This document shows positions 3,736-62,565 of a DNA stretch of 64,000 nucleotides, one piece after another. The DNA lies in the sequence record MN850603.1; one strand, written 5' to 3'. Both the position numbers and the translations under genes were made by a program. Position 1 is the stretch's first letter; every line of letters starts with the position of its first letter. The notes beneath the pieces were generated by a model, which was not told the origin of the DNA, ran no database searches, and saw only the letters and a program-made list of their open reading frames with translations. Origin of the DNA: Escherichia phage pinkbiff.

Positions 3736-4105
3736 ATTTTTCAGTATTCTTTGTGTTCTTTTCAGTAATAGCTTGGAGGGCTGATACTGATTGAGCCAGA
3801 TTATTCACACTGTCAGAGAATTTATCAAGAGTTTTGGTAAGTTTTGCGTTTTCACCCTTAACGTTCTCTAACTGAACTTTCTGGTTTTCCATCCCTAGCT
3901 GAATCAGCCTCATGTCAGACTGTAAATCACGAATAGCTGAGTAATTAGATTTGCTATAATTATCTAGCTGCTGTAATTTTGTTGTGACAGACACCTCTTG
4001 CTTACCACTTGAAACTTGCATCGTGGTATACATCCCAATAACACTAAAAATACCAACAACAATTGCACCAATATTATTTTTAAAAGCTTCCTCTATCCAC
4101 TTCAT
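3734..4105 (-). CDS. membrane-anchored coiled-coil protein
   Basis: N-terminal hydrophobic segment IGAIVVGIFSVIGMYTTM followed by heptad-like Q/L/N-rich region. Confidence 0.45.
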   Translation of the reverse strand: MKWIEEAFKNNIGAIVVGIFSVIGMYTTMQVSSGKQEVSVTTKLQQLDNYSKSNYSAIRDLQSDMRLIQLGMENQKVQLENVKGENAKLTKTLDKFSDSVNNLAQSVSALQAITEKNTKNTEK

Positions 4106-4300
4106 TTATTTCTCCCCCTTAAAAGCTTTTTCTAAGTTATCTACGAATTCATCATCAATAGGCGTGTCTGTCTTACCCGCAAGGTATCTTGCAAGCTTAA
4201 AGAACACTTTCTCAATCATGTATTCACTTAGAAGGGATAAAATGAGTTTCCAGAAGAAACTACCTAGATTTTTTAGGAGAATTGCTAGGATTGTAGGCAT
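4106..4300 (-). CDS. hypothetical small protein
   Basis: ORF track; contiguous with downstream gene start. Confidence 0.35.
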   Translation of the reverse strand: MPTILAILLKNLGSFFWKLILSLLSEYMIEKVFFKLARYLAGKTDTPIDDEFVDNLEKAFKGEK

Positions 4301-4379
4301 TTAATCACCTCATCAGCCAAGATGGTGAGAATACCTATAAAGAATATTAACACCATCTTAACAATCAGTCAATAAGGGA

Positions 4380-6713
4380 TTAAGCAGTCCTCACCCAAGC
4401 CATTAACTTATAGAACTGGTTAGTAACACTAAATGCTGAACCAGAACCTGTACCACCAGTGTTACCACTAACTGTATGACTGTGAGCACCAATACCAACA
4501 CTGTGAGCATGGTTACCAGCAGAAGCGGCAGTACCACTTACAGAGTGGGTGTGAGCACCGTTAGCATCGGTGTAACCCGGCCCTGTACCAATGTAACCAC
4601 CACCACCACCGGAATAGTGCTGTGAGTTCTGACCAATCCACGAAATAGAGTGGCTGTGGTTACCAGCAGATGAAGTAGAACCACTTACAGAGTGAGTGTG
4701 AGCACCAGTCGTGTTAGTGTTTTTTGTTCCGTAGTCAAACGATGAGGTAGTCGCAGAAAAACTGTGCGTGTGTGAAGGTAAGTTACCAACAGATAACGTT
4801 ACAGAATCTGAACCACCAGTTGTAGCAACATCTGAACCATTTGCTGCTGCAATTCTAATAGTCCTACCAACACCATTATTCAGATACGTCCAAGTTAGAC
4901 CAGGCAGTGCTGTATTAGGGTTAACATTACTGTTAAACCACGTCACAATACCTACTGGATAGATTTTGTTAAGGTCTGTAGAGTCACTTACTGCCTGTGC
5001 AATCTTCTGGTCAGTCTCTGCTTTAGTGTATGCACCAATAGCTGAAGGAGTTGGCTTCTGTGCAGTTGTGTACACCATAGCCCAACTTTTCTCAAAGCCA
5101 TCACCATCTCTTGATGTCCTATACCACATACCACCATTCGCCCATTTAAATCTTAGCTGCGCAGACGGTGTAGATGACTCAGACCCCTGATATAACTGAA
5201 GTAAAAGATTTGATGATGTAGCTCCAGTCTTGACATTATACAGCCCTGTCTTAGCATCCCAAGCAATAGCAGCATCATTATCACCTTCACCAGTTTTTCC
5301 TGCATACATGTATCTGGCGTTTGATGCTGAACCGGTATAGTACCTTTTATCTAGGTTAGTCCAGTCGGATGGTTGAACCTGCCCAGTGATTGTTACATTC
5401 TTATTAAACTGGATATAGTTCTCTCTAAGAGACAGTTCAGTACCTAACACCATCTCCCTGATAGTAAAGTTTCCTGAAGCATTAGTACCCATAAACCACT
5501 TTTTAGCACCATCAGAAGTATAACCTTGCAAGAACAAACCACCAGTATCATTTACCCCTTGAAGCCTAATACCCTCTCCATCAGCCTTAATAATCTGACC
5601 TTGAGAAAAAGTATTCTTAGCATTAATTTTTGCAAGAGTGCTTAATGTTGCTGCCGGAATATATCTAGAGTCAATGTTAGTCCAATCTGAAGGTTGAACT
5701 TGACCAGTTACAGTTAGTGTTTTATTGATATTAACACTTGTCCCTACAGTAATCTTGCCACTAGTTTTGTAGTTTTCTAGAGCTACGTTATCACCTTCGT
5801 TACTATTACCAATGTACCATCTGTTGACACCTGTGCTATCAATTGCTTTAATGTACAATGGTTGTGCAGCATTGGCATTCTGTAGCCTAATTGCTTCACC
5901 ATCTTTTTTGAAAACACTCAGTTGTTTGAATGTATTAGTGCCGTTAAAAGTGTTATTACCAGCCAACTGTGCAAATCTTTGATTAGCCAATGTTTGGGTA
6001 AAGTATCTATCATCTAGGTTAGACCAGTCTGAAGGTTTAACCTGACCAGTGATATTTAAATTCTTATTAGAATTAATACCTGCTGAATCCAATGTCAATG
6101 TCGTGCCAGAGGCTTCATTTGATAATCCAAGAACATTTGAAGTATTAAATCCAACATACCATTTATTAGTTCCAGATGGGTCTTGACCTCTAACATAGAG
6201 AGAAGGGCTATCAGTTGCACTTCTTAACAACAGTGCTTGACCATCTGCTACAATTGTCTGCCTAGACTTAAAAGTATTTAGTACTTCTAATCTAGCATAT
6301 CTAGCATCATTCTCAGCATTAGTTCTCATCCCAAGTTCATTAGGGCTTGGCTTATTAAGAGTATGATAAACAGTTGCAGACCTTGAAGCATCTGCAATAG
6401 TTAGTTTAAGACCATTTGCATTAATTTTAAAAGTCTTTAAAACATCCCCCATAGTAATCTCAGAAGAGCCTGTAGGGTCAAAGACTGCCTTACCACCATA
6501 AAGTAACTTAACAATCCCTAAGTCACCCGTCATAGTGCTACCAGCAATCTGGACAAACCTTTCTAGTTTAAAAGATGCTAAGAAGTCTTGATAGGTCATT
6601 CGACGGTCTTCATCACCCAGCATTTCAGGTCTCTTTTTAACCCTGACATGGAGGAGGTCATCTGAACGAATTGTATCAATTGAGTTTAATTCACTCAACT
6701 TGTAATCTGCCAT
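4380..6713 (-). CDS. tail fibre protein (long, repeat-containing)
   Basis: 777 aa; repeated internal modules (TGQVxPSDWxNLDxRY x3); C-terminal His-rich H-x-H-S repeats and ...WVRTA end shared with adjacent fibre gene; position distal to baseplate genes. Confidence 0.7.
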
Positions 6714-55275: not shown

Positions 55276-57642
55276 TTAATCGTAAATTGTAGTTCCTTCT
55301 GGAACACACTTCACATCAAAACCTAAGAACTTACTCACTTCGATGGGTGACACTTTATTCCAATCTAAATGAGAAAGCAAGAAGTTTTCTTGTTTTCTTT
55401 TTGAAAGATAGTTTGTCAGTTTGATAACCATGCGGTCACCCGCTTTCTTAATCTTTTTGTACAGTTTTGTATCATTGTCAAGGCATGACTTCAAATCCTG
55501 AAGAACACTGATAGTGTAAGTGTATGCAAACGGTGCAGCAACGTATTGGATTTTACCAAACATTGCCTCTACAGCCTCTTCATTACCTTCTAGGAAGATA
55601 GTTTTGTTTGTGTCTCGTGAATAGCAATAACCACGAGAAATCTTCCTGTTATTGAACGTAAAGTTTCTGGCAATAATCCAACTGCTTGTCAGGTCTAGGA
55701 CACCATTCATATAGATACGTGTCATATACCTGTTGTGATTAATCCAGTGAACATCAGTTAAGCTGTCATTCAAGAGCTTCTCATCTACTTCAATCCAGTC
55801 TTCTGGTATCTTTTTCCAATTTGCTTTTCGGAAAACATAGACTGTCTTCCCTATAACATTAGCAACTGACTTAGCTACATCTTCTGGAGATGAGCAAAAA
55901 CATTTGCCATCAACTGTGTCGCCTACTGCCTTAATGTAAAGCTGAGGTTCCTCAATTGTGTCTAAGTCTTCTGACACCTCTGTGTATGAGGCTACAGACT
56001 CTGCTGGAACTGCTTTCCAGAGTTTTACAACACCCCTCACAGCTTCTTTACGCTGATAATGGTGTTCCTTATCAGACATCTTCACAATCTTTAACAAACT
56101 TTTATCAAGTTTATGTAGGTTGATTAAATCATCTAACTCTTTTTCAGTCGAGAATACAAACACAATACCATTGTATCTGTGGAACAGGCTTGACTCGTTA
56201 GCGTAGTCTCGACATGCACCACGCAGAATCTGATTGCGGCCTACAGTCTTCTCAGTGCCATTTTTATTACGACGGTCATTAATCACGAACAAAAACTGTT
56301 CAATTTGGCTTTTACGCATTGCACCAAAGATATTGAACATACTTGCCTCTTGAGTGTAGGAAAGTGCTGTTGCACGAATCTTACTCTCTAAAGAGTTGAA
56401 CTTGACATAAGCAACTGGATTATAAAGATAATCCACTTTAGGGATATTGTTCCCGTTCCTATCAACCTTGATATTACCTTTACCGTCACGTTCATAAATG
56501 ACTGAGCCGTCTTCTGCGTAGATAATCCCACGACGAATGTTTAGTAATTCTTCTTCCAGAGAATCAAGCTTAACACCTCCCCACTCTAGCTTTGGACACA
56601 CAGCATTAAACATCTCTCGTGAGTTCAAACGTAACTCAGCATAAGCCTGTGCAGCATCCATGAGTGTAGGTTGGCTATTAACTTTCTTGATAACATCCTT
56701 TGTAATTGCTTCAGTTATCTTTTTAGTAGCCTCAATGATAACATTTTTTGTCGTATCATTCATCTGCAATGCTTCACGAGAAGCTGCAATAGCAACTGAG
56801 CCAATAGGCATGTAGATGTTTACAAGGTCTACGCTCCTACGGAAAAATTCTGGCAAGACTTTGAAGAAATCATCACCAAGTAATGCTTCCATGTTAACAG
56901 GGTATGCAATGTTACCCATCACCACATTAAACTCTGTCCTGTTACCACTAGAACGCCAGCTTTGCTTATGAATCATGGCATCATAAACACCTTCTTCACG
57001 GGCAATGACGTTCATATCTGCTAATACATCGTCATACTCGATATTGCTTTCTGGTTTTACAGCAAAGTATGAGTATACGTGACCAGCTTCTTCAAAGAAT
57101 TTTGAGATACGATGGTCAGCAACTGCTACACGTACAGCTAAGCCATTAGGTTCCTTTGTTGGGTTGGTAGTCAGCTTAGTCACTTGAGGAATACCATTCT
57201 CAAGATAAACAGAGTACTTATTAACAACACCGTCAACATAGCTAGACACTGTGAATGACTGAGCAATTGCAAATGGAGATTTTGAGCCGATACCCATTGC
57301 ACCAATGTAATCATTAGAGTCATTCTTCGTAGAAGCCCCGTAGTTTAGGTACAAACTCATAACTTTATCATGAGTCAATCCAGTTCCAAAATCACGGACT
57401 TCAAAGTAAGGCTCAAAACGAGTAGGTAAATGCACATGGAACGGGATATTCTCTTTTCCAGCTTCTTTCTGAGCATCTACTGCGTTACATGACAGTTCAC
57501 GAATCACTGCCCTTTCTTTAAAGGTATATACACCAGAACTCAGAAGGCTGAACATTTCAGGTGTCATTGTAATCTGTGCTTGAGACGTCTCTAAAGAAGT
57601 TGAACTCTTAATCACTTCTGCGTGGTCGTTTACCATGCGCAT
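55276..57642 (-). CDS. rIIA: rIIA-like protein (GHKL ATPase-like N-terminus)
   Basis: 788 aa; N-terminal MTPEMFSLLSSGVYTFKERAVIRELSCNAVDAQ ... VRDFGTGL ... YIGAMGIGSKSPF parallels T4 rIIA. Confidence 0.75.
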   Translation of the reverse strand: MRMVNDHAEVIKSSTSLETSQAQITMTPEMFSLLSSGVYTFKERAVIRELSCNAVDAQKEAGKENIPFHVHLPTRFEPYFEVRDFGTGLTHDKVMSLYLNYGASTKNDSNDYIGAMGIGSKSPFAIAQSFTVSSYVDGVVNKYSVYLENGIPQVTKLTTNPTKEPNGLAVRVAVADHRISKFFEEAGHVYSYFAVKPESNIEYDDVLADMNVIAREEGVYDAMIHKQSWRSSGNRTEFNVVMGNIAYPVNMEALLGDDFFKVLPEFFRRSVDLVNIYMPIGSVAIAASREALQMNDTTKNVIIEATKKITEAITKDVIKKVNSQPTLMDAAQAYAELRLNSREMFNAVCPKLEWGGVKLDSLEEELLNIRRGIIYAEDGSVIYERDGKGNIKVDRNGNNIPKVDYLYNPVAYVKFNSLESKIRATALSYTQEASMFNIFGAMRKSQIEQFLFVINDRRNKNGTEKTVGRNQILRGACRDYANESSLFHRYNGIVFVFSTEKELDDLINLHKLDKSLLKIVKMSDKEHHYQRKEAVRGVVKLWKAVPAESVASYTEVSEDLDTIEEPQLYIKAVGDTVDGKCFCSSPEDVAKSVANVIGKTVYVFRKANWKKIPEDWIEVDEKLLNDSLTDVHWINHNRYMTRIYMNGVLDLTSSWIIARNFTFNNRKISRGYCYSRDTNKTIFLEGNEEAVEAMFGKIQYVAAPFAYTYTISVLQDLKSCLDNDTKLYKKIKKAGDRMVIKLTNYLSKRKQENFLLSHLDWNKVSPIEVSKFLGFDVKCVPEGTTIYD

Positions 57643-57670
57643 AATACTTTCCTCTCAGTTTACTGTTAAA

Positions 57671-57847
57671 TTACTTATTAAACATTTTACCAGAACCACC
57701 ACACATAGGGCAACATCCTGCCCTTGTGTACCCCTCTCCATTACAGTAGTCACATTTTTTGTGCTCTGCAAAGTACTTACAAAGGAGGTAAACAAATACT
57801 GCTACACTACCAAGTGACAGTAAAATTTCTATCCAATATGCTTGCAT
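57671..57847 (-). CDS. small membrane zinc-ribbon protein (below ORF-track cutoff)
   Basis: 58 codons read by hand: MQAYWIEILLSLGSVAVFVYLLCKYFAEHKKCDYCNGEGYTRAGCCPMCGGSGKMFNK; hydrophobic N-terminus plus CxxC..CxxC. Confidence 0.3.
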   Translation of the reverse strand: MQAYWIEILLSLGSVAVFVYLLCKYFAEHKKCDYCNGEGYTRAGCCPMCGGSGKMFNK

Positions 57848-58164
57848 GACTCACCTCTCATATTCTTGTAAAGGATAAAGCTTCTGTCATGGACAATACT
57901 TGTAGACACTGCAAAGTTACTTTCAAGCATCTGTTTGTTTGGATTGTAGAAGCTCTCTTTAAACTCGTCAAGTGCAAATTGGTGATGTTGCGGAAGACCT
58001 TTTACGCAGACCTTTATTGTGATTGCTGCTGCGACCTTGCCAGTCAGTTCTTCTTTAGCTGCTACCAAGATTTTGTTAAGGAACTTATGACCATCTTCAG
58101 GCTTCTTGATGTTCTCCCAACGTTCTTCTAAGACAATGTTGATGTTCATCTCTTTGATTTTCAT
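57829..58164 (-). CDS. hypothetical protein
   Basis: 111 aa; ORF track. Confidence 0.45.
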   Translation of the reverse strand: MKIKEMNINIVLEERWENIKKPEDGHKFLNKILVAAKEELTGKVAAAITIKVCVKGLPQHHQFALDEFKESFYNPNKQMLESNFAVSTSIVHDRSFILYKNMRGESCKHIG

Positions 58165-58169
58165 AGTTT

Positions 58170-58200
58170 TCTCCAGAAATTAAAAAGGCTCCCGTAGGAG
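58170..58200 (-). terminator. rho-independent terminator after NAMPT-like gene
   Basis: minus-strand hairpin GGCTCCtacgGGAGCC followed by U5. Confidence 0.55.
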
Positions 58201-58217
58201 CCTCTTATCATATACTT

Positions 58218-59999
58218 TTAAAGCTGCTTGTCAATATTATTTCGAATATCCCCAAGAGTTGTGTAACCGAACTGCTCAGAGTCACTAAAGACTAAACGTA
58301 AGGCACAAGCTGGGTGGTCAAGTGCATCTGCAAAACTCTGGAATCCATAGCCATCTACAGCTTTCAGCTTATCACCATCCCACATGGGTGCTACACCACC
58401 AAAAGCAGATTTCTTAACACCACTATCTGTTTTAGGGTCTTTTGCAAGCATAATCTCTTTACCACCAATGCTTGCAAGAGTTGCTTTGACAGCAAATGCA
58501 AAGGTGTCACGAGTCATGTACTGGTAAGTGTAAGAACCTACACCAAACACTACGTTAGAGCTTGCAAAACCCATTTCATACAGACGCTTCAGGATTTCGT
58601 TTGCACGTTCCAGCGTGATAGAGTCACCATAGATAAGTCCGATATGCTCATCCAGTACCTTAAACCCTTTAGAGTTAATAGTTCCCCCAAAGATGTTGTA
58701 CAGTGTCTTAATAGCTCCATCAATCTCAGCTACAGGACGTGTTACAACGTTTGCAGAACCAACCATATAAGTGTTTTTCAACAGCACTGTATCAGCAACT
58801 TCAAAGTCTTCTCTGTCAACAACCATTTCGTAGCCTTCTGACAGTAGCCATCCAGCAATACCATAATTGATGTTTTCAAGCTTCATGTTCAGAACAGCAT
58901 TCAACATTGTGTCGCTGGCTTCAAGCTTGCTTAAGTGTTCGTAATAAGCCTTTTTAGCACATTCTAAGTGGATTGCTTTATAACCTGTGACAATATGTAC
59001 AGGGTCTCCAGAGTCAGGACGAATTACCAGTTTGCCATCACGTTCCATAATTTCTTTACGAAGTGCTGGTAAAATTTCTGACACAGTTCTCCAGAAGTTA
59101 TAAGTGTCTGAAACAACACTTGCAATACCAGTTGGGTAAGTTTCTGTTAAGAAACGACGGAAGGTTTGTAACTCACCTTTAAAGCGTCTTTCTTCTTCAA
59201 TCAACTCATTACCACCTTCCCAAGCAATGTTTGCACACATTACAGAATGTTCCGTGGCTGGTACAGAACTGCCAATATCAGAGATTGGGTAAGACTGCCC
59301 ATAGATTCGTTTAGCCGTGTATACAGCAGGGAAGCTATCAGTTCCTTTAAAGCTGGTTAAGTGGCCTACAGCATTGAATGCGTCATCAGTAAAGCCTGAC
59401 ATACCACGCATAGCAAAGTCATGGCACTGATAAGGTAAATGCAAGTCATTGTCACAAGTAAGGTCAGCCCACTTCTTACAGATACGCTTGTAGTGCAATG
59501 CAATAGTAGCAATGGTGCAAGCTTTCCAAATCTCAGCAGAGAAAGCATCCTCCAGATACCCTGCTACCCAATGGAAACCTGAAACAGTGTTCTGGAAGAC
59601 AATCATTGGGACACGCATCGGGACAACTGTGCCTTCTTCTACAGCGTATACTTCAACTGGTAGATAACCTAAGTCGTGAAGTGCTTCCCAATGCTCTCGA
59701 CCGATAGCATCTTTACCCAGAACACCATTCATAACTTCTAAGATTTTGTCAATTGCTTCTTTTTTATCACGTTCAAAGAAAGTGGCGTTCCAGTGGTCTA
59801 TCAAGTAATCTTTAACAAAACGTTGAATACCAAAAGCCACTACACCATCAATTGCTAAGGGGCTGTTAAACCATTTATCACTACGTGGTGTCAGGTTCAA
59901 CATAAGATATTGCGTAGCATCTGGATACTGATATATATGTGATGCCTTGTAAGCATCTGCATTAAGACCTGCTGGTACTGCGTAAAGTGACTTACTCAT
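58218..59999 (-). CDS. nadV: nicotinamide phosphoribosyltransferase-family protein (NadV/NAMPT-like; possibly Namat-type)
   Basis: 593 aa; type II phosphoribosyltransferase features of the NAMPT family; near a Prs-family gene. Confidence 0.75.
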   Translation of the reverse strand: MSKSLYAVPAGLNADAYKASHIYQYPDATQYLMLNLTPRSDKWFNSPLAIDGVVAFGIQRFVKDYLIDHWNATFFERDKKEAIDKILEVMNGVLGKDAIGREHWEALHDLGYLPVEVYAVEEGTVVPMRVPMIVFQNTVSGFHWVAGYLEDAFSAEIWKACTIATIALHYKRICKKWADLTCDNDLHLPYQCHDFAMRGMSGFTDDAFNAVGHLTSFKGTDSFPAVYTAKRIYGQSYPISDIGSSVPATEHSVMCANIAWEGGNELIEEERRFKGELQTFRRFLTETYPTGIASVVSDTYNFWRTVSEILPALRKEIMERDGKLVIRPDSGDPVHIVTGYKAIHLECAKKAYYEHLSKLEASDTMLNAVLNMKLENINYGIAGWLLSEGYEMVVDREDFEVADTVLLKNTYMVGSANVVTRPVAEIDGAIKTLYNIFGGTINSKGFKVLDEHIGLIYGDSITLERANEILKRLYEMGFASSNVVFGVGSYTYQYMTRDTFAFAVKATLASIGGKEIMLAKDPKTDSGVKKSAFGGVAPMWDGDKLKAVDGYGFQSFADALDHPACALRLVFSDSEQFGYTTLGDIRNNIDKQL

Positions 60000-60013
60000 A
60001 TTTTATCTCTCTC

Positions 60014-60505
60014 TTAGTTATGTCTTGCAAACTCACCATGAAGTTCTATTCGCTTTTTAATTACAGCTTCTTTTGCTTCTTCTACCGTTTTAAATCTTCC
60101 ACAAAAGTATTCTTTATGGTAAAGCATGACTCTTGCTTTGTAAAGACCTGTTTGTTTACAAAAACTTACACCCTTCACACCAGTTTTATTATTCTTGTAT
60201 ATACCCCTATTCCTCTGATTTTGTGACTTTGTGCTAAGTCTTAAATTCTCCAACTTATTATTAGATTTATCAAGGTCTATGTGGTCTATCTCATATCCAC
60301 TTGGTATCTCACCTCCAGACATAATCCATGCAATATTATGTGCATAGTACCTCTTCTTATTTATCTGGACTTGGATATAACCCTTCTTAGACCTTGTGCC
60401 AGCAACATTACCAGCAATAGCGGTATTGCAAAGGGTTACTTTCCAAATTAGTAAACCTGTCTCCGGTTCGTATATTAGGTATTTTTCGAAGTAACCCTTA
60501 TCCAT
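60014..60505 (-). CDS. HNH homing endonuclease with AP2 DNA-binding domain
   Basis: 163 aa; HNH_3-type core (GYEIDHIDLDKSNNKLENLRLSTKSQN) followed by AP2-like segment (GVKGVSF..GLYKARV..GRFKTVEEA); inserted between nadV-like and prs-like genes. Confidence 0.7.
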   Translation of the reverse strand: MDKGYFEKYLIYEPETGLLIWKVTLCNTAIAGNVAGTRSKKGYIQVQINKKRYYAHNIAWIMSGGEIPSGYEIDHIDLDKSNNKLENLRLSTKSQNQRNRGIYKNNKTGVKGVSFCKQTGLYKARVMLYHKEYFCGRFKTVEEAKEAVIKKRIELHGEFARHN

Positions 60506-60513
60506 TTTAATAC

Positions 60514-61410
60514 CTAATCCAAATTTGCTACAGTAACTTGACCATAATGTGTTAAGCCACGGTCTTTAGCTTCGCCTAAAGAGTTTGTAGTGTAAATATG
60601 GTCGATACCATTGTCAAGAAGGTTTTCAACATCTTTAGAGAAGATACCATGTGTTACATAAAGTTCCACACGTTTTGCACCTGCTTCACGAAGATGCTTA
60701 GCTGCTTCTATGAAGGTTCGACCACCATCACAGATATCATCCAGAATCATGACGGTTTTATCTGTCAAATCAACATCATCAAGGATTCGCATACCAGTAA
60801 TTTCACCAGTCTTAAGGTTACGCACCTTAGACATTGTGATATATGGTTTATCCACCTCTTTAGCGGTCTCTGCAACCTTCTTAGCAGCACCTGCATCTGG
60901 GGCTACTAAGTAATCAACCAGTGGGTCATTTGCATAGTGGACTGCAATCTCCTTTTGAGGAATACTCTGGAAGCAGTTAAACAGGTTATCTGGTACATAG
61001 CTGTGAGGGTCAACTGCACAGACTGCACCAAACCCCATTGCATTAACCTGTTTAGCAAAAACCTTCAAAGCTGCTGCATCACCTTTAAACATGTGACGGT
61101 CATATCGTGCATTTGGTAAGTAGTAAAAGATGACAGTCTTTAAGGCATAATCATGAGGAATCAAATCATCAATTGCTTCTTTAGCAAGTGCCACAGCAAA
61201 CAATGTGTCCTTGTCGTAGCCTTTTACAATCATAACCACATTGTTAATGGAGGATGCTGCATAAGCAGTAAAATCAACTAGCTCTTGTGAAAAGTGTCCA
61301 CCAATCTCACCAGAAGGGAATTGAATGATGTTAAACTCTTCTTCATGAGTTCCTTTAGTTGGTGAATGAATTGTAACACGGATAGATGTTTTCATAGTTT
61401 TCTCTCTCAA
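60514..61410 (-). CDS. prs: ribose-phosphate pyrophosphokinase-family protein (Prs-like; possibly Adps-type)
   Basis: 298 aa; PRPP-binding loop VMILDDICDGGRTF and overall Prs-like layout. Confidence 0.75.
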   Translation of the reverse strand: MREKTMKTSIRVTIHSPTKGTHEEEFNIIQFPSGEIGGHFSQELVDFTAYAASSINNVVMIVKGYDKDTLFAVALAKEAIDDLIPHDYALKTVIFYYLPNARYDRHMFKGDAAALKVFAKQVNAMGFGAVCAVDPHSYVPDNLFNCFQSIPQKEIAVHYANDPLVDYLVAPDAGAAKKVAETAKEVDKPYITMSKVRNLKTGEITGMRILDDVDLTDKTVMILDDICDGGRTFIEAAKHLREAGAKRVELYVTHGIFSKDVENLLDNGIDHIYTTNSLGEAKDRGLTHYGQVTVANLD

Positions 61411-61685
61411 TCAAAAGTTACGTTTGTTACTGCCATTGCAGATTTGCATTTTACAGGGTCTACAACGTGATAAAGTACACTACAGTTACCTGTGCTGTCT
61501 GGCACAGGCTTTACCCATTGCTGCTTGACAGTTGGTTCTCCTAAGTCTTTGCAGGAACCATCTGTATAATTATTTACCATCTCAAGTGCAATTGGCTCTG
61601 GAATATGACCACGTATCATGTACATTTCACAACCATTGCCGCCTTCACTGAGTAATGGTAAAATCTCCCACTTTTCTTTAGCCAT
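61407..61685 (-). CDS. hypothetical protein
   Basis: 92 aa; ORF track. Confidence 0.4.
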   Translation of the reverse strand: MAKEKWEILPLLSEGGNGCEMYMIRGHIPEPIALEMVNNYTDGSCKDLGEPTVKQQWVKPVPDSTGNCSVLYHVVDPVKCKSAMAVTNVTFD

Positions 61686-62193
61686 TATAAGTTGCCCTAT
61701 AAACTGTCTCGAACTTCAACAGGAGAGATATTGCCAAATCTGTATAGTTGTTGTCAAGCACATCTGGCATATTATTTTTGATATATTTCTCTTGCTCTTC
61801 GTAGGTCATCTTAGGGGTAATTAAAAGACTATCCCCTTGCTTCTGGTTATCAAGTTTAGTCTGGATAAACCAGTTTGCACAGTGATGCTCACCACCCTTT
61901 GTAACAGGTTTGTGGTGTCCTAATGTGAAGGATTGACTACCTGTGTATCTGCAAAGTTTATTGAGTATTGTAATGGTGTTCTTCACAACAAAACATTCAT
62001 ACAGGTTATCTACGGTGTAGTGTGGGTAATACCGGAATAATGCTCTTTCACGGGAACTCTCACGATTCCAGAGAATCATGTGATTGGAGTTAGAAGGGTC
62101 GTATTGGTGGGAATCAATGAACTCTTGACGTTCCTCAAAGCTGAGTCTTAGAACTGACATTGCAGCCGAACGTTTTAGGTTTGATAGATACAT
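61678..62193 (-). CDS. hypothetical protein (possible His-Me finger/HNH-like nuclease)
   Basis: 171 aa; segment GHHKPVTKGGEHHCANW resembles an HNH core; weak. Confidence 0.35.
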   Translation of the reverse strand: MYLSNLKRSAAMSVLRLSFEERQEFIDSHQYDPSNSNHMILWNRESSRERALFRYYPHYTVDNLYECFVVKNTITILNKLCRYTGSQSFTLGHHKPVTKGGEHHCANWFIQTKLDNQKQGDSLLITPKMTYEEQEKYIKNNMPDVLDNNYTDLAISLLLKFETVYRATYNG

Positions 62194-62244
62194 ATCATCT
62201 CCAAAATAAAAAGGGAACCTTTACAGTTCCCTTATAGTATCTGT

Positions 62245-62565
62245 TTACTGAGCTACTTTCAAGATACTTGTGAATGAAATCTCACTCTCATCCATAAACT
62301 CTTTTGCTTCTCCTGTAACTTTTACAAAGTTATCTAGGCAGATAATCTTCTTATCTTTCTTGCTGTAGGTTAGCTTGACCTTTTCAATATCTTTCTTAGA
62401 GTTTTTCTCTTCATTAAAGAGCTTCACAGCCTCTTTAAATGGTAGGTATGAACCATCATCATCGCTAATAAAACCTGTGCCACAATAGTAGAAGTTGTAT
62501 TCTTTAGCCATAAACTGGCACAGTACGAAAATCTGTAATTTGCGAGTGTTATAAACTTTGCTCAT
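62245..62565 (-). CDS. hypothetical protein
   Basis: 106 aa; ORF track. Confidence 0.4.
   Translation of the reverse strand: MSKVYNTRKLQIFVLCQFMAKEYNFYYCGTGFISDDDGSYLPFKEAVKLFNEEKNSKKDIEKVKLTYSKKDKKIICLDNFVKVTGEAKEFMDESEISFTSILKVAQ

Follow-up and report, generated by a model that had tools for sequence, protein, structure and literature searches.

We analysed a 64,000-nt stretch of Escherichia phage pinkbiff (MN850603.1; hereafter, the window), which by its sequence is from a Felixounavirus (Ounavirinae; Felix O1-like myoviruses of E. coli and Salmonella). On its minus strand, an intact open reading frame (ORF; 60014..60505, ATG start, 163 aa) encodes an HNH nuclease domain followed by an AP2 DNA-binding domain. 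It lies between a Prs-like gene (prs, an orthologue of adps) and a NAMPT-like gene (nadV, an orthologue of namat). Taken together, our results make it very probable that this ORF is a selfish, free-standing HNH-AP2 homing endonuclease gene that colonised the adps-namat spacer in Ounavirinae phages. The ORF is exactly as described in an earlier reading of the window (the sequence-only reading), which had placed its start just past the prs-like stop and its stop just ahead of the nadV-like start. The two gaps are 8 nt, from the prs-like stop to the endonuclease ATG, and 14 nt, from the endonuclease stop to the NAMPT-like ATG.

The same reading had called the gene a free-standing HNH endonuclease with an AP2 domain, and profile searches and a structural model bore this out. 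The Pfam HNH_3 profile (PF13392) matched over positions 1-46 of 46 with 69.7 bits (E=1.6e-19; cutoff 24.8), and the protein matched PHROG 99 (phrog_99), "HNH endonuclease", at E=3.5e-69. When the single sequence was searched, the Pfam AP2 profile (PF00847) reached 20.8 bits (E=4.7e-4), below its gathering score of 33.3. Because this score was sub-threshold, we probed the AP2 assignment further. A database search yielded 186 homologues, mostly ~160-190 aa long, many of them with precomputed PF00847 and PF13392 matches. From 71 of these we built a family profile and compared it with the sequences of solved structures. The profile matched the plant AP2 domains of WRI1 (E=1.2e-11), TEM1 (1.4e-6), ERF096 (4.3e-4) and AtERF1 (3.8e-3), all at residues ~108-162 in the C-terminal third, and the nuclease I-HmuI (1U3E; E=1.8e-9) at residues 29-105 in the N-terminal two thirds. 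Both I-HmuI and the AP2 proteins were reached by the family profile only; a search of PDB sequences with the single endonuclease sequence returned no match at E<=1.

The AlphaFold2 model of the protein had a mean predicted local distance difference test score of 91.7. Its C-terminal unit is a three-strand sheet (113-116, 121-128 and 131-138) plus a helix (141-159), and about 50 residues of it superposed on TEM1 at 1.2 A and on AtERF1 at 1.5 A (Foldseek, probability 1.00). The top Foldseek match of the model was 1u3e_M (E=3.3e-4, probability 1.00), with a whole-chain TM-score of only 0.45 because the C-terminal domains differ. Across the 71 homologues D74, H75, R89 and N99 are invariant and N83, N87 and N96 are at least 90% conserved. 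The window protein has all seven, and these catalytic or metal-binding residues fall in the stretch (~29-105) that the family profile aligns to I-HmuI. All 12 of the 12 gene copies examined were full length with intact catalytic residues, and the ratio of nonsynonymous to synonymous substitution rates (dN/dS) was 0.05-0.28, a pattern indicating that the gene is under purifying selection. Its G+C content is 35%, versus 40-42% in the neighbouring genes, and no further HNH-AP2 gene was found within the window. From these data we infer endonuclease activity and present-day homing.

Many Felixounavirus genomes are 95-96% identical to the window over the nadV-endonuclease-prs stretch, and the endonuclease gene with both spacers is 100% identical to those of phages LNA6, D4 and I14.1. 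The sequence-only reading had proposed a comparison with related phages at this junction and would have been refuted by universal presence of the gene there, with no empty-site relatives. We ran this comparison and found the insert absent in about three quarters of the relatives: the nadV-prs flanking block matched 256 phage records, whereas the endonuclease DNA matched 63, so that roughly a quarter are occupied. Empty junctions were read in 11 Felixounaviruses (REP9, EC6, heid, TP1, 35FD, LMP25, BPS17L1, tootiki, JH2, VpaE1_ev035 and Bas63), in Sf18 (Mooglevirus) and SUSP2 (Suspvirus), and in ten IMG/VR contigs. Six other IMG/VR contigs carry a close relative of the gene, always between prs and nadV. 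The genomes compared are related to one another and were taken from match lists, and some of the IMG/VR contigs look like the same phages as GenBank records and may be duplicates.

Remoter homologues, at ~41-43% protein identity, occupy other sites, one of them between minor tail genes of a 46-kb phage. In a Felixounavirus-like IMG/VR contig of 88,487 bp (IMGVR_UViG_645044533_000001), we observed an empty adps-namat junction together with a 43%-identical HNH-AP2 paralogue (locus 3-383) ~12 kb off. Different members of the HNH-AP2 family therefore occupy different sites in this phage group.

Comparison with the empty alleles delimited a 501-nt cassette. In all 11 Felixounavirus junctions the empty spacer is 45-46 nt long (44-46 nt across Felixounavirus, Mooglevirus Sf18 and Suspvirus SUSP2), and in the Felixounavirus junctions it reads, in coding orientation, stop-AAnTTTATAGGGGCTTnnAAGCCCCAyTTTGAGAGAGATnAAAAn-ATG. 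The same hairpin spacer is found in the empty junctions of all three genera and in the ten IMG/VR contigs. The cassette takes in the final base of the prs/adps stop codon, a leader of 8 nt, and the whole ORF with its own stop. Occupied alleles retain the GAGAGAGAT ribosome-binding stretch of nadV, while everything between it and the prs stop is replaced, so that the cassette substitutes for ~31 nt of the empty spacer, the GGGGC-loop-GCCCC hairpin included. The sequence-only reading had spoken of a gene "inserted" at this junction. A cassette is indeed present there, but the comparison with empty alleles speaks against a clean insertion, since ~31 nt of spacer have been replaced. The boundaries are identical in all occupied alleles, and the same occupied and empty boundaries recur in Felixounavirus, Mooglevirus and two Suspvirus phages. 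The prs stop is TAG in occupied alleles of the window type, TGA or TAA in empty alleles, and TGA in the diverged copy assembled from run ERR2298559. Because the empty alleles of Sf18 and SUSP2 carry the same hairpin spacer, the empty form is probably ancestral and the cassette derived.

The replaced hairpin folded with a centroid energy of -11.5 kcal/mol (z=-2.8 against shuffles), and it holds the two G4/C4 runs nearest the junction; the next such run lies ~140 nt into namat. As an intrinsic terminator it was rejected: a simple scan did not call it, and just four U's follow the stem. GGGGC-loop-GCCCC hairpins also occur at four other places in the window (6734, 36034, 44203 and 55248), and these elements may form a family of intergenic stem-loops.

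Movement of the gene was first indicated by its incongruence with the flanks. Moogle (Mooglevirus) shares 90-91% identity with ten Felixounaviruses in the endonuclease gene, but 76-77% in prs and nadV. Between Moogle and the ERR2298559 phage the relation is reversed, with flanks 82-84% identical and the endonuclease gene just 76%. In a sliding comparison, Moogle was Felixounavirus-like across the endonuclease gene and ~120 nt of nadV; outside that tract it resembled its genus-mate Sf18, as far as the prs stop itself. Over the first 22 nt of nadV, Moogle and phiSUSP1 share the sequence ATGAGTAAATCACTTTACGCAG with occupied Felixounaviruses, while Sf18 and SUSP2 differ. As far as sequence comparison can tell, this pattern shows at least one fairly recent inter-genus transfer, of a tract that reaches ~120 nt into namat.

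We also asked, for 10 occupied and 10 empty Felixounaviruses, whether the nearest relative of each shares its occupancy status, with P obtained by permutation. Over the 200 nt at the junction, the nearest relative had the same status in 16/20 cases on the nadV side (nominal P=0.008) and in 18/20 on the prs side (nominal P=0.001). On the rest of the two genes, there was no linkage (11/20, P=0.34, and 10/20, P=0.49). Breakpoints no more than ~15 nt from the cassette were seen in phiWec177, which is occupied with an empty-type nadV start, and in JH2, which is empty with an occupied-type start. Status-linked flank haplotypes within ~100-200 nt are a pattern consistent with co-conversion. The sequence-only reading had seen in this gene the typical footprint of a mobile homing endonuclease, and presence or absence at a fixed site, gene-flank incongruence and short linked tracts all support that view.

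Several observations weigh against active homing or limit what can be said of it. The compared genomes are related and were chosen from match lists, so the P-values above are nominal only. No single-nucleotide polymorphism in the flanking genes is fixed between the occupied and empty alleles compared, and the cleavage target therefore cannot be read off the sequences. Nor can the hairpin alone be the whole recognition site, because similar hairpins exist elsewhere in the window. We had considered phiSUSP1 as a second independent inter-genus transfer and rejected it: its whole namat region is 97-100% Moogle-like, so it does not count as independent. In the ERR2298559 phage, the endonuclease gene and its flanks have diverged equally (76% identity in both cases), which fits long vertical residence too. 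Finally, our literature search found no experimental test of cleavage or of super-Mendelian inheritance for this gene. Separately, apparent "fixed differences" in 60098-60242 were discarded as an alignment artefact, the 45-nt spacer having been spread across the endonuclease gene.

The strongest rival explanation is that the gene is a relic, which once homed and is now a vertical passenger, the patchwork having arisen from ordinary recombination and occasional loss without current drive. The ERR2298559 copy, diverged in step with its flanks, favours it, and Felixounaviruses are visibly mosaic throughout the region. JH2, empty with the occupied-type first 50 nt, and five empty genomes with the occupied-type namat haplotype (see below) could each reflect loss or simple recombination. 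Against this, a useless relic would decay, while all 12 copies are full length with intact catalytic residues and a dN/dS of 0.05-0.28. The inter-genus copy at 90-91%, versus flanks at 76-77%, speaks for at least one fairly recent transfer, and the linkage is limited to at most 200 nt, as break repair gives. We consider a relic unlikely.

A further feature lies in the 5' end of namat. Nucleotides 34-102 of this gene (window 59898-59966) exist in two forms that are 31-35% divergent and differ by ~6 residues in codons 19-34, whereas beyond nt 102 the difference is ~2%. One form was present in 15/15 occupied genomes and also in 5/20 empty genomes; the other was found in 15/20 empty genomes and in 0/15 occupied ones (Fisher P=5e-6, nominal, given the kinship of these genomes too and a possible overlap between some IMG/VR contigs and GenBank records). 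The end of the patch is close to that of the Felixounavirus-like tract in Moogle, between ~nt 100 and 120. Two readings may fit: homing repeatedly overwrites this stretch with donor sequence, or a poorly cleaved variant lets endonuclease-free phages persist.

On the preferred reading, that of a selfish homing gene, the cycle would begin with co-infection of a cell by two phages, one occupied and one empty. The enzyme would be produced during infection, co-transcribed with the operon in which its gene lies, and its AP2 domain would dock on the endonuclease-free allele. The target would most likely lie in or beside the GC-rich hairpin spacer and/or in the first ~100 nt of namat, where the HNH domain would nick or cut. 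The nearest relative with a solved structure, I-HmuI, is known to nick DNA. Recombinational repair would then copy the 501-nt cassette and ~100-200 nt of flank into the recipient; the pattern expected to result is the one seen in the sequences. The occupied allele would be immune because the cassette replaces ~31 nt of the spacer, a replacement directly visible in the alleles. AP2 domains of the HNH-AP2 family are reported to favour GC-rich DNA (PMC10448857). One could go further and suppose that the endonuclease is homing actively in this operon, that break-repair tracts reassort the start of namat among genera of the Ounavirinae, that the patch (codons 12-34) is a cleavage-resistant allele kept by an arms race, and that AP2 reads the deleted GC-rich hairpin. 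We regard this fuller scenario as doubtful.

Table 1. Features of the endonuclease locus in the window and occupied alleles in other phages
Feature	Coordinates	Strand	Basis or remark
Free-standing homing endonuclease gene, HNH_3 + AP2	60014..60505	minus	D74-H75, N87, R89, N96, N99 conserved
HNH_3 (I-HmuI-like beta-beta-alpha-metal) nuclease domain, residues 53-98	60212..60349	minus	Pfam, homologue profile, Foldseek
AP2 DNA-binding domain, residues ~108-157	60035..60184	minus	Sub-threshold Pfam, homologue profile, model superposition
Mobile cassette, 501 nt	60014..60514	minus	Delimited against empty alleles
Ribosome-binding region of namat/nadV (GAGAGAGATAAAAT)	60000..60013	minus	Common to occupied and empty alleles; downstream cassette boundary
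Endonuclease-linked tract at the 5' end of namat (~100 nt)	59898..59999	minus	Haplotype comparison
Candidate stem-loop, 7-10 bp (TAGGTATT / AATACCTA)	60474..60518	minus	Local fold; tentative
NAMPT-like gene, Namat orthologue, downstream flank	58218..59999	minus	97% aa identity to bas63_0080
Prs-like gene, Adps orthologue, upstream flank	60514..61395	minus	77% aa identity overall to bas63_0079
Felix O1 (ORF305), Felixounavirus			Endonuclease gene 91.7% DNA identity to window; same two neighbour genes
Moogle, Mijalis, Mooglevirus			Endonuclease gene ~90% DNA identity to window; same two neighbour genes
phiSUSP1, Suspvirus			Endonuclease gene 90.6% DNA identity to window; same two neighbour genes
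Assembly from run ERR2298559			Endonuclease gene 76% DNA (79% protein) identity; same two neighbour genes
Arno162, Pectobacterium phage			Endonuclease gene ~71% DNA identity; same two neighbour genes

The flanking genes place the endonuclease in a counter-defence setting. Bas63 (JohannRWettstein) is a Felixounavirus with an empty junction and the same gene order, whose bas63_0079 and bas63_0080 are annotated as prs and NAMPT. Osterman et al. found that Bas63 genes 79 and 80 form NARP1 and do not make phosphoribosyl pyrophosphate (PRPP) and nicotinamide mononucleotide (NMN) (bioRxiv 10.1101/2024.02.11.579819). In NARP1, the first enzyme, Adps, pyrophosphorylates ADP-ribose and Namat joins the product to nicotinamide, so that nicotinamide adenine dinucleotide (NAD+) is rebuilt, and the pathway counters NAD+-depleting defences such as SIR2-HerA (same preprint). 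The sequence-only reading had called the flanks two functionally linked metabolic genes. The link holds, in the form of NARP1; what falls, by orthology to Bas63, is the idea of a PRPP/NMN salvage pair, the genes being the anti-defence pair Adps and Namat. The annotations "nicotinamide phosphoribosyltransferase" and "ribose-phosphate pyrophosphokinase" are thus functionally misleading here. Given this orthology, the endonuclease gene splits a two-gene anti-defence operon. Neither the NARP1 preprint nor the Adps structure paper mentions an endonuclease in the operon.

The operon is flanked by terminator-like hairpins (62233-62211 and 58206-58183) and by its layout appears to be one transcription unit; the endonuclease gene is probably co-transcribed with it. 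For the Prs-like gene, the program-made ORF starts at TTG 61410, while relatives are annotated from ATG 61395. The C-terminal half of Adps is nearly identical between the window and Bas63. We observed that the N-terminal half (window ~60900-61395) falls into two allele classes among Felixounaviruses, which share ~77-78% aa identity, while the C-terminal half is nearly identical between the classes; many records match the query just to position 2903. On the other side, PHROGs 16547 and 15800 each match one half only of the 58218-59999 protein, either the N-terminal (1-320) or the C-terminal (268-593) half, and the NAMPT-like gene may be split or interrupted in some phages. In Escherichia phage ESCO56 (OM386665.1; locus 4001-4533), adps and the junction are gone, and of namat just the last 168 nt survive, adjoining a small gene annotated "HNH endonuclease". 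This loss indicates that the NARP1 module is dispensable and deletable in nature. Beside the operon, in the window as in relatives, lies a 171-aa ORF (61678-62193, minus strand) of PHROG 3500 (function not assigned). It has weak matches to an HNH endonuclease PHROG (E=4e-4) and to DUF7167, and its HHKPVTKGGEHHCANW...N stretch resembles a degenerate HNH motif.

Given this setting, we asked whether the gene could be a domesticated nuclease or regulator kept for the benefit of the phage, by excluding or degrading endonuclease-free relatives or satellites or by AP2 tuning of NARP1 expression, with self-propagation not its main role. The gene is under purifying selection and sits inside an anti-defence operon, where its cassette removes an intercistronic hairpin; moreover, homing endonuclease domains have been co-opted in phage-satellite conflicts, with their genes at boundaries of genetic exchange (PMC10448857). 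Yet about three quarters of the relatives lack the gene, including Bas63 with its experimentally functional NARP1, so it is not needed for operon function. Exclusion of relatives would be a by-product of homing, with no distinct mechanism, and the sequence gives no pointer to a second target. Domestication is therefore, in our judgement, very unlikely.

We further noted a candidate stem that could bear on expression of the endonuclease. It encloses the Shine-Dalgarno-like TAGG and the ATG of the endonuclease gene, with an overlap onto the adps stop codon. Every occupied Felixounavirus copy has it, as does that of Moogle, but the ERR2298559 and Arno162 copies lack it; because it is invariant where present, it gives no covariation support. 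The 116-nt fold around the endonuclease start codon was no better than shuffled sequences (z=-0.37). Such a stem would be reminiscent of the way in which translation of T4 homing endonucleases is controlled.

Carriage of the endonuclease by an intron or intein, or a terminase-associated role in DNA packaging, can hardly be entertained. HNH_3 enzymes such as I-HmuI are intron-encoded and some phage HNH proteins work with terminase, but this gene stands alone as an ORF in an intergenic spacer, has start and stop codons of its own and is out of frame with its neighbours, which excludes intron and intein carriers; no terminase gene adjoins it, and most relatives lack it. The region 57500-62500 gave no Rfam match at E<=1 to a group I intron, the sole hit being a chance histone stem-loop. 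For the six HNH genes of Felix O1, inteins were ruled out by Whichard et al. (PMC3185647).

The gene itself is already known and correctly annotated as an HNH homing endonuclease in dozens of GenBank records, among them the phage Mushroom orthologue ("HNH homing endonuclease; AP2/ERF domain"), so the genome annotation is unchanged by our finding. The pattern of presence and absence at the site, the NARP1 context and the namat patch are incremental additions; our literature search found no description of the empty-site structure, the replaced hairpin, the inter-genus tract, the nadV patch or the position within NARP1. What they add is a selfish nuclease placed within a phage counter-defence pathway that was discovered only recently, between its two enzymes. 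The ~100 nt of namat apparently dragged across genera would offer a natural example of nuclease genes marking the boundaries of genetic exchange. An arms race between the endonuclease and target variants within an anti-defence operon would, if true, be moderately interesting. The locus also offers an easy experimental system for how an ancestral-type AP2 domain chooses its DNA target, as closely related coliphages, both occupied (dune, skuden) and empty (heid, tootiki, Bas63), are available and can be grown on E. coli K-12.

Textbook accounts of the origin of plant AP2/ERF factors feature the HNH-AP2 family. According to two papers (PMC5318435, PMC10448857), HNH-AP2 homing endonucleases of phages, cyanobacteria and ciliates were reported by Magnani, Sjolander & Hake 2004 (Plant Cell) and by Wuitschick et al. 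2004; the two papers name the Felix O1 and RB49 enzymes among them. Six HNH genes of Felix O1 had been noted by 2010 (PMC3185647), and comparative Felixounavirus papers give two or three homing endonucleases per genome. With the same N-terminal HNH and C-terminal AP2 domains, and in the same phage lineage, the window gene is a member of this family with no substantive difference.

Compared with I-HmuI of Bacillus phage SPO1, the window protein has a homologous nuclease half, both being Pfam HNH_3. I-HmuI is encoded in a group I intron and its C-terminal DNA-binding part is not AP2, whereas the window gene is free-standing and intergenic. The T4-type seg and mob genes are alike in their intergenic site, patchy distribution, co-conversion of adjacent markers and expression from host operons. 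They differ in that seg genes encode GIY-YIG enzymes and mob genes HNH enzymes without AP2, whereas the window gene joins HNH to AP2 and its homing is deduced from sequence. For free-standing endonuclease genes of this kind, Edgell, Gibb and Belfort are said to have set out a model of "intronless homing" in 2010. The IPA-HNH genes of the Vibrio phage ICP1 likewise encode HNH with a C-terminal AP2 domain and lie at boundaries of genetic exchange between related phages (PMC10448857). Their HNH domains have diverged too far to match the Pfam HNH_3 profile, on which the window protein scores 69.7 bits.

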